Positions 35,215 to 50,579 of a stretch of 64,000 nt of DNA are shown piece by piece (position 1 is the stretch's first letter; each line of letters begins with the position of its first letter). Under the pieces are notes generated by a model. The model was given only the letters and a program-made list of their open reading frames with translations. It did not search any database and was not told the origin of the DNA. The DNA comes from an uncultured Candidatus Saccharibacteria bacterium (GTDB taxonomy: Bacteria > Patescibacteriota > Saccharimonadia > Saccharimonadales > UBA7683). The stretch lies in contig CAZIPE010000002.1 in NCBI GenBank assembly GCA_964541305.1, forward strand, positions 7,972-71,971. Reading direction: 5' to 3'. Both the position numbers and the translations under genes were made by a program.

Positions 35215-35583
35215 CTATATCTGGTCGCGTGAGCGCGTGCAGAATATAAAACTAATCCTAGATCCAGCCAACATAGTCTGTATTTCTTCTGACGGAATCG
35301 TTGGACTTGTAAGGGCAAGGTGGCCAATAACTGCTTCTCTTTCTGAGATAGCGACATCATTGTCTCGAGAATATTCATTTATTGCCTTGGGTACCAAGCT
35401 TCTTAGCACCAACTCATCGTGCGACACATTTCCCGGACTAGTTTCAAGCCATGTAATTTCAAGGCCATTTTTTTTCATAACTAAGCTACCCAGTAGAGAA
35501 ACCTGAGATAATCCCGCTTCTTGACACTTCGCTTCAAGCACAGTTTCAAAATCTTTTTCAGTATTTAGTGTATTCATAGTCAT
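35215..35583 (-). CDS. hypothetical protein (about 122 aa)
   Basis: ORF only. ATG 35583 is preferred over the track's GTG 35589. Confidence 0.4.
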   Translation of the reverse strand: MTMNTLNTEKDFETVLEAKCQEAGLSQVSLLGSLVMKKNGLEITWLETSPGNVSHDELVLRSLVPKAINEYSRDNDVAISEREAVIGHLALTSPTIPSEEIQTMLAGSRISFIFCTRSRDQI

Positions 35584-35627
35584 ATGCACCTATTGGTGGC
35601 AGTGAACGAGTATACACTAGGGGTGAA

Positions 35628-37514
35628 CTATTGCAAGATGGCTTTTATACGACGAATGCCAGCAGATGAGGCTTCTTCTTTGATGATCTTGAATTTCTTG
35701 CCGTCTTCGAAAAGTTGAAGAGTGTGATCGACATGAGGACCGCCACAGATTTCGAAACTGAACGGCTTAGTCTCAGTATCAGCTATCATCTTATATACTT
35801 TTACAGATTCACCATATCTATCACCAAATTGACCGAGCGCGCCAAGAGGGCCTGTAGCCTCTTTGGTAGGATATTCAGCCCAACTTACTTTAAGGTCTTT
35901 GGCGATTTGTTCGTTGACAATCTTTTCAACTTCGTCCAATTGCTCACGCGTTACTTTTTCAGGGTGAGAAAAATCAAATCTGAGTCGTTCTTCGGTAATG
36001 TTCGATCCTCGCTGAACAACATGATCACCAAGCACGTCGCGAAGCGCTTGGTACATCAGATGTGTAGCGGTATGATATTTTTTGTGAATCATTTGCTGAC
36101 CACCAAGTCCGCCCTTAAACGTTCCTTTACTGGCAGTTTGCGATCGCTCGCGTTGTTCTTTCATTAACTCATCAAATTCATCTTTCCAGTTTTCTGAGAC
36201 ATTCACCTCTTGCTTAAATGCTTCTTCAACCGAAAGTTCTAATGGAAAACCGTACGTATCGTAGAGCGTAAAAACTTCTTTGCCGGTTAGTCCGTCTTTA
36301 GTCAGTTTTTCAAACTCACGTATACCCTTTCGTAATGTCTGTCGGAAAACTTTTTCTTCTCGCACCAGAATATCAATCACTTCTTGCTTCTTCTGGGAAA
36401 CTTCAGGATAGTCTTGCTCATATAAACCAGTGATAACGGGTACTATTTCTTCACAGAAATTTTGTTCCACACCGAGCTCAAAGGCGAAGCGAATTGCCCG
36501 ACGCATCAATCGACGCATAACGTAACCCTGTTCTTTGTTGCTTGGTTTGACACCATCTACGGCTAAGAACGTTGCAGCACGCAGATGGTCGGCTATTACG
36601 CGCATAGCGTTGGTATGATTGGCGTATTGTTTACCAGAAATCTGTTCTAACTTTTCAACGATTGGCCACATCAGCGATATCTTGAACACATCTGGTGAAT
36701 CAATAGCTGCTGCAGCAATTCGCTCCAGACCTCCGCCGAAGTCGACATTGGGTGCAGACAGTGGCTCAAACCCCTTTTCAGTACGTTTGTATTGCATAAA
36801 TACTTGATTACCAATTTCAATGAAACGGCCAGAATCACTCGCAGGGTGCGCCTCACCGTATCCATCGGCATGATTCTGCTTACCAAAGTCGTAAAATACT
36901 TCGCTATCAGGACCACATGGGTCACCAATTGGTGTCTTCTCAAGTCCACCTCCGCGAGACCACCAGTTTTCACCGTCATCATAGAAAAATATTCTCTCAC
37001 CTGCGTTAATACCACGCTTATCACCGTCTTCTTGTGAGCCTATTTCAGCAATCTTGGCATCAATTCCTCTTTCTTTAAACAGATTTTGCCATATTTGAGC
37101 AGCTTCGTCGTCCCGCGGTATACCCGCTTTTTCATCGCCAATAAAACACGTGACATATATTTTTTTAGGGTCAAGGCCAACCACGTCAACCAAAAATGTG
37201 AAGAACCACTTGATCTGCTCTTCTTTAAAATAATCACCCATACTCCAGTTACCAAGCATTTCAAAGAAAGTAGTGTGACGATTATCACCGACATCTTCAA
37301 TATCCATAGAACGCAGACATGTCTGAGAATTCACAAGACGCTTACCTTGAGGGTGTTCCTCACCCAGAAGATACGGTATCAGCGGCTGCATCCCGGAACC
37401 AGTAAATAGGGTAGTGGGGTCATTGTATGGCACTAAAAGTGCCCGAGGAATCATCTCGTGCCCACTTTTCTTGAAGAATTCTAAATACTTTCGTCTAATT
37501 TCTTGTGCATTCAT
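35628..37514 (-). CDS. alaS: alanine--tRNA ligase, short form (628 aa) lacking the C-Ala domain
   Basis: The N-terminal class II catalytic core begins MNAQEIRRKYLEFFK..GH...PRA.LVP..DPT.LFT.SGM. The editing-domain metal motifs HTATHLMYQAL and CGGPHV are present. The protein ends about 40 aa after the editing domain. Confidence 0.9.
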   Translation of the reverse strand: MNAQEIRRKYLEFFKKSGHEMIPRALLVPYNDPTTLFTGSGMQPLIPYLLGEEHPQGKRLVNSQTCLRSMDIEDVGDNRHTTFFEMLGNWSMGDYFKEEQIKWFFTFLVDVVGLDPKKIYVTCFIGDEKAGIPRDDEAAQIWQNLFKERGIDAKIAEIGSQEDGDKRGINAGERIFFYDDGENWWSRGGGLEKTPIGDPCGPDSEVFYDFGKQNHADGYGEAHPASDSGRFIEIGNQVFMQYKRTEKGFEPLSAPNVDFGGGLERIAAAAIDSPDVFKISLMWPIVEKLEQISGKQYANHTNAMRVIADHLRAATFLAVDGVKPSNKEQGYVMRRLMRRAIRFAFELGVEQNFCEEIVPVITGLYEQDYPEVSQKKQEVIDILVREEKVFRQTLRKGIREFEKLTKDGLTGKEVFTLYDTYGFPLELSVEEAFKQEVNVSENWKDEFDELMKEQRERSQTASKGTFKGGLGGQQMIHKKYHTATHLMYQALRDVLGDHVVQRGSNITEERLRFDFSHPEKVTREQLDEVEKIVNEQIAKDLKVSWAEYPTKEATGPLGALGQFGDRYGESVKVYKMIADTETKPFSFEICGGPHVDHTLQLFEDGKKFKIIKEEASSAGIRRIKAILQ

Positions 37515-42328: not shown

Positions 42329-42862
42329 ATGTTTAACTGGCTCTCACAGATGATGATAGTAACCTCAATGGTCATTCCCTACGCTACCTCTACTTCAACG
42401 AAATTTGAAAGCTTGCCAATTAAGCCAACTCAAGATCAAATTGAATGCAGAACTCAGTCGTGGGAAAAAGAAAATCTCACTACTGTTACCAGCGCCCAGG
42501 TAGACAAAAAACTTGCACCGTACATTGAAAAGCTTATAGCTGATGCACGGCTCAGTGGTAATAATTTTCTAATTAACTCGGGCTATCGAACCTGTGCCTT
42601 GCAAGCAAGCCTACGCGTCTCTTCTTGTGGCGGAAATGATAACTACAACAAAAACCTTAAGCCAGCAGACCTCTGTTCTCCGCCAACCGAACCCGCTGGC
42701 CGAAGTCTGCACAATGACGGTCTCGCAGTAGACTTTGCCTGCCAAGGGTACGGCGTTTTGGAGTACTCCCCCTGCTACAGCTGGTTACAAAAAAATGCCT
42801 ACAAATACCAACTTATTAATCGCCCTGGCGAACCTTGGCACTGGTCCACCACTGGTAGGTAA
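42329..42862 (+). CDS. M15B (VanY-like) D-alanyl-D-alanine carboxypeptidase family protein
   Basis: Has an N-terminal signal/TM, SGYRT, the zinc-ligand motif SLHNDGLAVDF, and EPWHW. The ATG is 7 nt after TACAAT (42316-42321). Confidence 0.75.
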   Translation: MFNWLSQMMIVTSMVIPYATSTSTKFESLPIKPTQDQIECRTQSWEKENLTTVTSAQVDKKLAPYIEKLIADARLSGNNFLINSGYRTCALQASLRVSSCGGNDNYNKNLKPADLCSPPTEPAGRSLHNDGLAVDFACQGYGVLEYSPCYSWLQKNAYKYQLINRPGEPWHWSTTGR

Positions 42863-47675: not shown

Positions 47676-47972
47676 AAAAAATGAATCCTTCTTTGTATTA
47701 TTTAGTTATTACTTGGTCGTTTTTGAATTTTTCAAAAGACCTTGATTGTCTCATAGAGCCAAAAGTAATATCTAAATAACTACGGATCCATTAAACAATT
47801 ACGTTAATATTAGCACCCCTGTAGAGAAAAGTCAAGCGTAAGTGGTTTAGTAGACCTAGTGCGAAAAAATTAGCGCCTTCTCATGATAAAACAAAGGCAG
47901 TAGAAGACACATCTCATATTGAACAGTCACACGTGTACTCGACTAAATAATCGACCCATAACGTGAAGATTA

Positions 47973-48001
47973 TTGACAATATATATTTGTTGTGTTATCA
48001 T
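47973..48001 (+). promoter_or_regulatory. promoter TTGACA-17-(TGt)TATCAT upstream of the small Cys-containing ORF
   Basis: TTGACA at 47973-47978, a 17-nt spacer, then TATCAT at 47996-48001 with an upstream TG. The ORF track translated this TTGACA as a TTG start. Confidence 0.6.
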
Positions 48002-48038
48002 AAATAAGATTAATAGAATGTGGAGATATTGGAGTCTT

Positions 48039-48368
48039 ATGTTTAATACTGGGAAGACACGTAAAAATTTTGAGCAATGCCCAAACCGCACCACGGATGG
48101 TGGGACAAGTAATAATACTAAGTTTGTTCTGCGCTGTGCCGCCTACCCTAGTGGACTAGAGACACCTGTATCTCTATCTGGGATGTCGTATTCCGAGAAT
48201 CGCAAGAACGTCGCTATGATGGCTGGCTGTTTAGCATGTCCGTATTCAAAAACTCCTCTTGAAAGAACTCAAGGCCTGGGAGTATCAAGCCAAGGTGATC
48301 CGGTGGAAGTGACAATTTTTCTGCGTCCAGAAGATACTGCAGGGTCTCCTGTAAATCATCTAGACTAG
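48039..48368 (+). CDS. hypothetical small protein (109 aa, four Cys including CLAC)
   Basis: GGAG at 48031-48034, 4 nt before ATG 48039; an in-frame ATG at 48018 is an alternative start. Looks GC-richer than the AT-rich flanks by eye. No family recognised. Confidence 0.4.
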   Translation: MFNTGKTRKNFEQCPNRTTDGGTSNNTKFVLRCAAYPSGLETPVSLSGMSYSENRKNVAMMAGCLACPYSKTPLERTQGLGVSSQGDPVEVTIFLRPEDTAGSPVNHLD

Positions 48369-48555
48369 CGAAAAGCAAAAGAAGTCTGCCTGCCTACTAA
48401 AATACACTCCCCACCGGGCCGTCTTTGCCGTGTTCGGTAGATTTAGAGAGAAAAAAATGACTGCCTCATCACTAAAATATCGGGAACAGTAGGTGGATTA
48501 ATTGTATGTTAAGTAGAATAGACACAGGATTAGCTACATACCAGAAGAGTAGTTT

Positions 48556-49290: not shown

Positions 49291-50019
49291 CTATAGCTCT
49301 GGCTCAATTACGCCGTACAGAGAGTTGGGTTGCTCACGGAAGTATGCCCAGACAGTATCTCCATAACTATAATGCCACCATTCATTGTAGTCTGGTGCAA
49401 AACCAGCCTGCAACATCGCTTCAAGTAAAATCATCCTGCTTGCATATTGCTGGTTAGTTATCTTGTTCGAATGTAGGACTGCACTATTAGTATTGGTGTT
49501 AACTGGGCAACCAAAATCAACAAGTTTGTTTAGCGCGGTATCGAACATATCTACATCGACTGCAGCACCGCAGCAATGGGGAGGTAGTGTCACGTTTGGA
49601 TCGCTAACATACGTTCGTGCGAACCCTACCGCCTCTTCATAAAGTGCACCAGGGTGTTCTTTTACATACTTATCTACCATTTGCTGAAACTCTGCTTGCT
49701 GAACTGTCAGTGGTCGATGACCTGCTCTCAGCACTAGAATAAAGTGATGGGGAAGATGGCTTACTGCTTCATTTAACCTTTTAACCACTTCTTCTCGTAA
49801 ATATATTGTGTTGTACTCTGGGTTTTGTTTAATATACTGCCTATAAAGTGGACCCTCTAATATATCTGTTTGTGTTTTCCAAATTGGATCTAGTTTTAAT
49901 CTAGATTTTTCGGTCACTTGTACTAGTGGGCTGAGTAAATTACTGCAACTTAAATTTTCTGGATCCAGTTCGAATGATGTTTTTGTTCTATCTACTAATT
50001 GTTGTAACGTAAGCGACAT
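49291..50019 (-). CDS. M15D (VanX/DdpX-like) D-Ala-D-Ala dipeptidase family protein
   Basis: 242 aa with RAGHRPLTVQ, the zinc-site block HCCGAAVDVDM and NEWWHYSYGD. The ATG is 7 nt after TATACT (50027-50032). Confidence 0.7.
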   Translation of the reverse strand: MSLTLQQLVDRTKTSFELDPENLSCSNLLSPLVQVTEKSRLKLDPIWKTQTDILEGPLYRQYIKQNPEYNTIYLREEVVKRLNEAVSHLPHHFILVLRAGHRPLTVQQAEFQQMVDKYVKEHPGALYEEAVGFARTYVSDPNVTLPPHCCGAAVDVDMFDTALNKLVDFGCPVNTNTNSAVLHSNKITNQQYASRMILLEAMLQAGFAPDYNEWWHYSYGDTVWAYFREQPNSLYGVIEPEL

Positions 50020-50062: not shown

Positions 50063-50091
50063 AAAAAACAAAAAGCACTCTTCAAAGTGCT
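50063..50091 (-). terminator. rho-independent terminator of ssrA
   Basis: The minus strand reads AGCACT-ttgaag-AGTGCT followed by TTTTTGTTTTTT, starting 27 nt after the tmRNA CCA end. Confidence 0.65.
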
Positions 50092-50117
50092 TAATGGTTT
50101 ACCATGAGCTTGTCGAA

Positions 50118-50511
50118 TGGTGGAGATGCCGAGTACTGCCCTCGGGTCCGAAAAGTAACCATCTGCTCATCTACGTGCGTAGTTTATCCTGAAATTTTAC
50201 AAACCTTACTTATAGAGGAAAAACAAAAACAAAGAAGATTTGTTATCAGTAAAATGTCGAATGTTTCGCTGATAAACCGAAACAAACCGAGCCAAATAAT
50301 ATGACACCGGAAACCGCACTATTTGACATCATGCGACCGGTGGCGTACCTAAATTAGGCAACTTGCATAGCAAACGTGTTAACGCGGAAAGCGTTAGCAA
50401 CAGATGCTACGACTTGTTTAATTGTTTTTGCAATTAAAATGTGAATTACGTTCACGTTCGACACGCCAAGCAGATTGTTAAAGTCTCTTCGTCTAAAGCT
50501 ATGTCATCCCC
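50118..50511 (-). ncRNA. ssrA: transfer-messenger RNA (tmRNA, 394 nt)
   Basis: The 5' end GGGGAUGACAUAGCUUUAGACG pairs with the 3' end CAUCUCC-ACCA to form an acceptor stem containing a G3-U wobble. The 3' end UUUUCGGAC-CCGAG-GGCAGUA-CUCGG-CAUCUCCACCA parallels the E. coli tmRNA 3' end (UUUCGGAC-stem-loop-stem-..CUCCACCA). An internal tag frame reads GUA GCA UCU GUU GCU AAC GCU UUC CGC GUU AAC ACG UUU GCU AUG CAA GUU GCC UAA (..ANAFRVNTFAMQVA*), with the stop at 50354-50356. Confidence 0.85.
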
Positions 50512-50579
50512 TCGTCAACACAGTGGAGCTTGACTACTCCATATTTATATTATAGCACATTTTATTACTATTTTCTACA

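Follow-up and report, generated by a model that had tools for sequence, protein, structure and literature searches.

A one-piece tmRNA gene with a GGCAGUA T-loop in a Saccharibacteria genome

The segment 50118–50511 on the minus strand of the window, that is, the whole 64,000-nt stretch of DNA analysed here, is in all likelihood the functional ssrA gene of a bacterium belonging to the Saccharibacteria (Saccharimonadales-like, Patescibacteria), encoding a standard one-piece tmRNA whose alternative elbow is typical of the lineage. A covariance-model search of the window with Rfam RF00023 gave a match of 99.2 bits (E = 1.5e-37), far above the gathering score of 47. The match covers model positions 1–374 of 374 without truncation and coincides exactly with 50118–50511 (−), the coordinates at which the first-pass annotation had proposed a tmRNA; the proposal is thus borne out. 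The gene is 394 nt long with the CCA encoded, and the same ends were returned by ARAGORN after the first two bases of the T-loop had been changed to UU. In DNA letters, the minus strand from 50511 to 50118 starts with GGGGATGACATAGCTTTAGACG and ends with TTTTCGGAC-CCGAG-GGCAGTA-CTCGG-CATCTCC-ACCA; as RNA, the 5′ end is GGGGAUGACAUAGCUUUAGACG and the 3′ end is UUUUCGGAC-CCGAG-GGCAGUA-CUCGG-CAUCUCC-ACCA.

The two termini pair in a tRNA-Ala-like manner. The 5′ strand GGGGAUG (50505–50511, −) and its partner CAUCUCC (50122–50128) form an acceptor stem of 7 bp, in which G3 contributes to the G3–U70 identity pair for alanyl-tRNA synthetase (AlaRS). The 3′ strand continues into the discriminator A and the CCA end (50118–50128 in total, −), as read from the sequence, the RF00023 match, and the alignment of homologues. 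The T-arm, CCGAG-N7-CUCGG, is composed of a 5-bp stem (5′ strand, 50141–50145; 3′ strand, 50129–50133; both −, the latter from the sequence and the homologue alignment) and a 7-nt loop. The RF00023 alignment also displays a long helix 2, a reduced D-loop, and four pseudoknot regions. A 5′ acceptor strand is found only upstream of the T-arm, at a distance of 358 nt, and not downstream of it, which means that the gene does not have the circularly permuted form. At this locus only RF00023 reached its gathering score, and RF01849, the alpha type, did not. The ends, the 7-bp acceptor stem with G3–U, the T-arm, the in-frame ..ANAFRVNTFAMQVA-UAA, and the terminator, all of which the first-pass annotation had pointed out, agree with our reading of the sequence.

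The secondary structure was examined with an alignment (A1) of 21 one-piece GGCRGUA tmRNAs. RNAalifold on A1 recovered the acceptor stem, helix 2a–d, the main stems of PK1, PK2, and PK4, and the T-arm, and found compensatory changes in 33 of the 51 pairs across the 21 homologues. An explicit count over the same homologues showed that 94.4% of the cells are paired, versus 32–46% when the 3′ partners were slid by 1–3 columns; changes on both sides occurred in 34 of the 51 pairs, versus 10–17 in the slid controls. None of the 500 shuffles matched any observed measure. The G–U pair of the acceptor stem is invariant in all 21 homologues, and pair 5–68 covaries between C–G and A–U. Helices H2b–d and the main stems of PK1, PK2, and PK4 have four to eight compensatory pairs each, the pseudoknots being counted by these main stems. 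The main stems, placed by the RF00023 alignment on the minus strand, are UGAA/UUCA for PK1 (50442–50454; 4/4 pairs compensatory in the 21 homologues), CACCGGUCGC/GUUUCCGGUG for PK2 (50305–50342; 8/9 pairs), and the stem at 50182–50224 for PK4 (7/8 pairs). The T-stem is paired in 100% of the 21 homologues, with four of its five pairs covarying. The acceptor stem, the T-arm, and the pseudoknot stems, for which a check of conservation or covariation had been suggested, are therefore both conserved and covarying in the Saccharibacteria homologues.

The tag is predicted to be 25 residues long and to start from the upstream GCA at 50429–50431 (−). This codon, nt 81–83 of the tmRNA with UUUAAUU before it, was assigned by the consensus alignment to RF00023, which places resumption with high posterior probability at the GCA of UUAAUUGCAAAA, and by ARAGORN, which began the tag at nt 81 once the T-loop had been swapped. 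The frame at 50354–50431 (−) reads AKTIKQVVASVANAFRVNTFAMQVA (50431–50357) followed by UAA (nt 156–158 of the tmRNA; 50356–50354). The UUUAAUU-GCA context is common to the window gene and to three other collected tmRNAs (L295, L347, and L406). Among the matches listed, the closest tmRNA is that of Ca. Saccharibacteria UBA7683 (L295), which is 79.5% identical; its tag, AKTIKQVVASAANTFANAFRVNVAVPQAA, shares its first ten residues, AKTIKQVVAS, with AKTIKQVVASVANAFRVNTFAMQVA. An inner GUA or GCA had previously been suggested as the resume codon; the RF00023 alignment, ARAGORN, and the conservation in L295 all indicate the upstream GCA instead. The tags of the Saccharibacteria type range from 12 to 35 aa and end in QVA, QAA, LAA, IAA, ALA, AFA, AYA, VTA, or ARV, and several contain an ANAFR motif. 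The QVA end, which had been regarded as unusual, stands out against E. coli but, like the length of 25 residues, lies within the range of the clade, where one other tag of the Saccharibacteria type ends in the same way.

An intrinsic-terminator-like hairpin, AAGCACUU-UGAA-GAGUGCUU followed by UUUGUUUUUU, is located at 50063–50092 (−) and consists of an 8-bp stem and a T-run; the hairpin proper (50092–50073) lies 26 nt past the CCA. Upstream, a promoter-like site recognized by its match to the consensus, TAGAAA-17-TGnTATAAT (50549–50577, −; 10/12 consensus matches with an extended −10), is situated ~38 nt before the mature 5′ end of the tmRNA, and the intervening leader would be removed by RNase P. 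The 66-aa ORF antisense to the tmRNA (50104–50304, +) is a mechanical reading frame and not a gene, as the first-pass annotation had supposed. Four independent contigs (L001–L004) encode an identical M15 neighbour and a tmRNA with identical ends and T-arm, and the gene callers called nothing across the tmRNA on any of them; the strand opposite to the ORF is a covarying structured RNA. The nearest non-self homologues of the M15 dipeptidase neighbour are only about 60% identical among the matches listed, and the only organism-named homologue listed is from a Candidatus Saccharimonadales bacterium (P0025, 49% identity). Relatives do not share the synteny around the tmRNA: the M15 homologues were found in unrelated contexts, a ribosomal protein cluster or a Mur ligase region, with no tmRNA-sized gap. 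The tmRNA homologues were therefore gathered by DNA patterns. An integrated genomic island was also considered and was rejected, as the window contains no second tmRNA 3′ end at up to three mismatches. No SmpB domain was found in the scanned 120–242 aa ORFs of the window, and an Rfam search at E ≤ 1 of the ORF-poor stretch 47685–48555 returned only meaningless eukaryotic matches.

ARAGORN reported a tRNA-Leu alone in the whole window and no tmRNA. In order to locate the reason, ARAGORN 1.2.41 was run on native and edited versions of the tmRNA region. The native region gave no genes. When only G54G55 was replaced with UU (loop UUCAGUA), a tmRNA with the RF00023 ends and the tag AKTIKQVVASVANAFRVNTFAMQVA* was reported, whereas UGCAGUA, GUCAGUA, or repair of the D-loop alone did not rescue the window gene. 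The fact that the two-base swap restores detection shows that G54G55 is the reason why the gene was missed, and the lack of a tmRNA call at the locus, where an ARAGORN check had been proposed, is explained by the T-loop. The same behaviour was observed with the collected sequences. ARAGORN recovered 0/22 and 2/87 of the non-canonical one-piece tmRNAs (the set of 87 includes two UGCAAUA genes, one of which, L398, was confirmed as an ARAGORN match), in comparison with 42/47 and 14/15 of the canonical one-piece tmRNAs. Two-piece GGCRGUA tmRNAs were recovered in 116 of 135 cases and were reported as permuted. Evidently, ARAGORN tolerates GGCRGUA only in its permuted mode.

The T-loop, GGCAGUA (50134–50140, −; positions 54–60, with G54, G55, C56, A57, and G58), differs from the canonical U54-U55-C56-R57-A58 loop and retains only C56 and R57. 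Its distribution was investigated by three pattern scans. A complete scan of IMG/VR with a tmRNA 3′-end pattern requiring a non-T at loop position 54 yielded 60 loci, with GGCAGTA at 47 and GGCGGTA at five, on six different compensating T-stems. The same non-T54 pattern applied to 185,579 species genomes gave at least 120 matches; in about 108 of the 120 listed the T-stem is paired throughout, and most of these carry GGCAGUA or GGCGGUA. The named one-piece GGCRGUA matches listed all belong to Candidatus Saccharibacteria/Nanosynbacter (19 species genomes), and the named two-piece matches listed, with the exception of a 647-nt contig titled Nanopelagicaceae, belong to alphaproteobacteria; in the two-piece genes the 5′ acceptor strand lies 3–160 nt downstream of the CCA. 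One Berkelbacteria genome among the matches listed has a one-piece gene with a different loop, CGCACUU. The third scan, of metagenomes, fixed the T-stem (CCGRR/YYCGG) and the acceptor (CAKCUCC) and left the seven loop bases free. It gave at least 120 matches, and the 120 listed comprise GGCAGTA (87), GGCGGTA (6), and GGCAGTG/T (5), making 98 of GGCRGUN, together with TGCAATA (2), canonical TTC (17), and CTC-type loops (3). GGCRGUA is accordingly the lineage-typical loop in Saccharibacteria, among the matches listed, and the usual loop of alphaproteobacterial two-piece tmRNAs. In the literature, GG replaces U341/U342 in the mitochondrial tmRNA of Reclinomonas (R. americana), and Caulobacter tmRNA has a G at the U342 position (PMC1168896, 2005).

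The departure from the U54–U55 consensus, together with the rejection of the gene by ARAGORN, might be taken to mean that the gene is a decaying, non-functional tmRNA (a pseudogene) whose aberrant T-loop reflects damage and not design. We consider this highly improbable. The same heptamer is present in dozens of Saccharibacteria tmRNAs and in well over a hundred alphaproteobacterial ones, where it sits on T-stems that differ by compensatory changes, and the helices of the molecule covary among the homologues. The gene itself spans its full length, its tag frame is unbroken, and the resume context, the terminator, and the promoter-like site are all in place; the same 5′ end, length, and T-arm recur on the four independent contigs. 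The presence of the loop in the alphaproteobacterial two-piece tmRNAs indicates that it is a proven, workable design. The first-pass annotation was thus right that GGCAGUA departs from the UUCRANY consensus, but the loop is not peculiar to this gene, being found in both Saccharibacteria and alphaproteobacteria. Since accepted alphaproteobacterial members carry a GGCAGUA-type loop, UUCRANY should be regarded as a consensus rather than a strict definition.

The collected sequences also provided insight into the anatomy of the elbow. Among the unique sequences, positions 54 and 58 are G,G in 235, U,A in 80, A,U in three, C,C in two, and C,A and C,U in one each; neither G,A nor U,G was found. Since these two mixed combinations do not occur, we infer that a G54–G58 pair replaces the U54–A58 pair of the T-loop motif. 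Two otherwise Saccharibacteria-type tmRNAs (L398 and L427) have a UGCAAUA loop, in keeping with a maintained 54–58 pair. m5U and pseudouridine are normal in tmRNA T-loops (PMC3968760). With U54 and U55 absent, m5U54 and pseudouridine 55 presumably cannot form here. An ordinary T-arm, GGUUCAAGUCC, is present in the tRNA-Leu of the window, and the deviation is thus specific to the tmRNA.

The D-loop region, A8-CAUAGCUUUAGACG (50490–50504, −), has G13–C14 where most tmRNAs have G13–G14, and keeps the conserved GAC. Counted over unique sequences, the D-loop dinucleotide in one-piece tmRNAs is GC (89), GU (4), or GG (2) with a GGC loop, GC (2) with a UGC loop, and GG (49) or GC (1) with the canonical UUC loop. 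A GC or GU D-loop therefore accompanies a GGC or UGC T-loop in 95 of 97 one-piece cases and a GG D-loop accompanies the canonical loop in 49 of 50, although these co-occurrences, like that of positions 54 and 58, run across lineages and represent few independent events. The two-piece, mostly alphaproteobacterial tmRNAs with a GGC loop have GG (55), GU (6), GA (3), or GC (2). In alphaproteobacteria the same T-loop occurs together with a G–G D-loop, so this T-loop does not by itself require the D-loop change; the switch from G–G to G–C/U is specific to Saccharibacteria. A contact of C14 or U14 with G55, beside G13–C56, is possible.

Taken together, these patterns allow a tentative interpretation, which we regard as possible rather than probable. 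GGCRGUA may constitute a discrete, modification-free elbow with separate origins in the alphaproteobacterial/mitochondrial lineage and in Saccharibacteria, U54–A58 having changed to G54–G58 and U55 to G55. The change of G14 to C or U, in Saccharibacteria only, would perhaps create a new contact with G55, and changes in SmpB would be expected. The identity of the heptamer (GGCAGUA/GGCGGUA) in the two groups could instead reflect horizontal transfer of the alphaproteobacterial tRNA-like domain into Saccharibacteria, and two one-piece genes on large IMG/VR contigs (L035 and L053) indeed combine an alphaproteobacteria-like D-loop, AUAGGUUCGAC, with GGCGGUA. Such a transfer seems unlikely to us, because the Saccharibacteria genes are one-piece and of the PK1–PK4 type, match RF00023 and not the permuted model, have a G–C D-loop as opposed to the alphaproteobacterial G–G, and show no special similarity in the remainder of the molecule. 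Moreover, seven nucleotides of loop are too few for a phylogenetic signal. No mention of the one-piece occurrence in CPR bacteria, the failure of ARAGORN on such genes, the 54/58 covariation, or the coupling to the D-loop was found in the literature searched; searches on the tmRNA of Saccharibacteria, CPR, or TM7 found no discussion of tmRNA or its T-loop, and a search for the heptamer returned only unrelated primer and miRNA matches. For 6765 Patescibacteria genomes, the 2025 tmRNA database gives 5252 standard tmRNAs (PMC11915505, supplement), so that the tmRNAs of the clade are already catalogued.

The window also encodes an AlaRS of 628 aa (35628–37514, −), which is not part of the tmRNA gene and is described here as context. 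It has the catalytic and tRNA-recognition part, with tRNA-synt_2c at residues 5–490, and a tRNA_SAD motif (571–623). No C-Ala/DHHA1 domain was detected after tRNA_SAD in a Pfam search even at E ≤ 5, and the PDB sequence matches cover the catalytic part only. The previous remark that this AlaRS lacks C-Ala is correct, the protein ending just after tRNA_SAD. A hidden C-Ala in the 124-aa ORF downstream of the AlaRS gene was ruled out, since this ORF had no Pfam match at E ≤ 5. The C-Ala domain contacts the tRNA elbow, and an AlaRS that stops right after tRNA_SAD raises the idea, at which the first-pass annotation had hinted, that the variant T-loop co-evolved with the shortened enzyme. We find this improbable: alphaproteobacteria use the same T-loop, their AlaRS being probably full length with C-Ala, and the tRNA-Leu in the window keeps a canonical T-loop. 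The window has no tRNA-Ala that could be compared. In summary, no support was found for a link between the loss of C-Ala and the T-loop.

The established trans-translation pathway suggests how the molecule would function. Transcription would start from the promoter about 40 nt upstream, and RNase P would trim the resulting precursor. The tmRNA would then be charged with alanine by the AlaRS of the window, bound by SmpB and EF-Tu, and enter stalled ribosomes, where it would add A-KTIKQVVASVANAFRVNTFAMQVA to the nascent chain. In the elbow, G54 and G58 would take the place of U54–A58, and a G that of U55, with C56 and R57 kept and a G13–C14 (or U14) D-loop coupled to them. The gene is an ordinary further member of the known tmRNA family, with a biologically routine role in ribosome rescue, and the only practical effect of the T-loop here is that the gene goes uncalled by ARAGORN.

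This effect matters for annotation. Pipelines that rely on ARAGORN will report Saccharibacteria genomes without ssrA or allow antisense ORFs to be called in its place, and a missed ssrA can feed false claims of the loss of trans-translation in CPR bacteria; covariance models such as Rfam RF00023 detect Saccharibacteria tmRNAs easily. In addition, the 54/58 covariation and the D-loop switch amount to a natural experiment on the requirements that SmpB, EF-Tu, AlaRS, and the ribosome place on the elbow. If m5U54 and pseudouridine 55 are absent as presumed, two large lineages would have tmRNAs that can dispense with them.

In comparison with known systems, the window gene is of the E. coli SsrA/RF00023 type in its G3–U70 acceptor stem, its ACCA end, and the UUUCGGAC that precedes a 5-bp T-stem with a 7-nt loop, and it shares helix 2, the four pseudoknot regions, a GCA resume codon, and a UAA-ended tag with standard one-piece tmRNAs. 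The 5′ segment of E. coli tmRNA has 22 nt up to GACG, the same length as in the window gene, with a D-loop of G13-G14...C18 where the window gene has G13-C14...A18. The window gene is unlike the standard type in its T-loop (GGCAGUA versus UUCRANY), and unlike E. coli in its predicted tag (25 residues with a QVA end versus 10 residues with an LAA end). The T-loop is instead that of the alphaproteobacterial and jakobid mitochondrial two-piece tmRNAs (RF01849, alpha_tmRNA), in which the identical heptamer, GGCAGUA/GGCGGUA, is found; the alphaproteobacterial two-piece tmRNAs also have UUUCGGAC before the T-stem, the G3–U acceptor, and ACCA. The shared GGCRGUA heptamer does not confer membership in RF01849, whose genes are circularly permuted with a G–G D-loop, whereas the window gene comes in one piece and keeps the full architecture. 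The alphaproteobacterial two-piece tmRNAs have been described with fewer pseudoknots (PMC3968760).

The closest resemblance is to the tmRNAs of Saccharibacteria, represented by UBA7683 (L295), Nanosynbacter (L217), and UBA2866 (L246), which are likewise one-piece with GGCRGUA. These tmRNAs and the window gene have in common the D-loop AGCUU(U)[AC]GACG and long tags rich in Ala, Val, and Phe. With 394 nt, the window gene falls between the Nanosynbacter type (351–373 nt) and the type of L347 and L406 (421 nt), and its own features relative to the other Saccharibacteria are the T-stem CCGAG/CUCGG and the C-terminus of the tag, ..TFAMQVA.

The tmRNAs of the Nanosynbacter type yielded no tag in ARAGORN, even when the first two T-loop nucleotides were replaced by UU, the change with which the program reports the window tmRNA. 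In the tmRNA of the Nanosynbacter contig L217 (1905-2255, plus strand), no GCN codon is found where L208 and the UBA2866 contig L246, when aligned with it, have their resume codon GCU, and it is likewise absent from the aligned position in L250, L282, L290, and other loci of this type. The frame reads UGA|AAA AGU GAA GAA AAU ... GCC UAA. The lack of both a tag call and an aligned GCN led us to presume that the resume codon of these tmRNAs may be a codon other than that of alanine.

Non-canonical T-loops were also found elsewhere. The tmRNA of a Berkelbacteria MAG (L245, 3409-3730, minus strand) carries CGCACUU, and CUCAAUA, CUCACUG, and CUCAUUA occur in those of three metagenome contigs (L352, L401, and L419); all four have G-A, not G-G, in the D-loop. 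The variety of tmRNA T-loops looks broader than the textbook consensus.

In the window, the terminator/hairpin scan found a short hairpin (GGAGUAGUCAAGCUCC in the minus-strand reading) at 50523-50542, within the predicted tmRNA leader, flanked by a promoter-like site on one side and the mature 5' end on the other. The scan recorded it solely as a terminator-like site, on the plus strand. The hairpin may be a structural element of the leader, or it may end transcription of the upstream MFS gene.

Two genes of the D-Ala-D-Ala peptidase type are present in the window, VanY (42329-42862, plus strand) and M15 (49291-50019, minus strand). Of two 190-aa ORFs on the minus strand, that at 39039-39611 matches DUF218 directly, and that at 48556-49128 matches in position the 190-aa DUF218 product called on L001-L003, contigs sharing the locus. 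Between the latter and the DEAD-box helicase gene lies an ORF-poor stretch of ~870 nt (47685-48555) with no noteworthy Rfam match at E ≤ 1. Its sole ORF (131 aa, TTG start) is on the plus strand; on the locus-sharing contigs, gene callers place a 109-116-aa product of no Pfam family there. Directly 3' of the AlaRS gene lacking C-Ala, a 124-aa ORF (35215-35589, minus strand) is roughly the size of that domain but matches no Pfam family with a cut-off as loose as E ≤ 5.

One-piece tmRNA-like genes were found on two IMG/VR contigs of 155-164 kb from a single sample (3300045988): L035 (1568-1935, minus strand) and L053 (5985-6352, plus strand). They could be tmRNAs of huge phages or misbinned cellular DNA, and their ARAGORN tag call looks spurious. 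Their tRNA-like domain, with the D-loop AUAGGUUCGAC and the T-loop GGCGGUA, resembles that of alphaproteobacteria.
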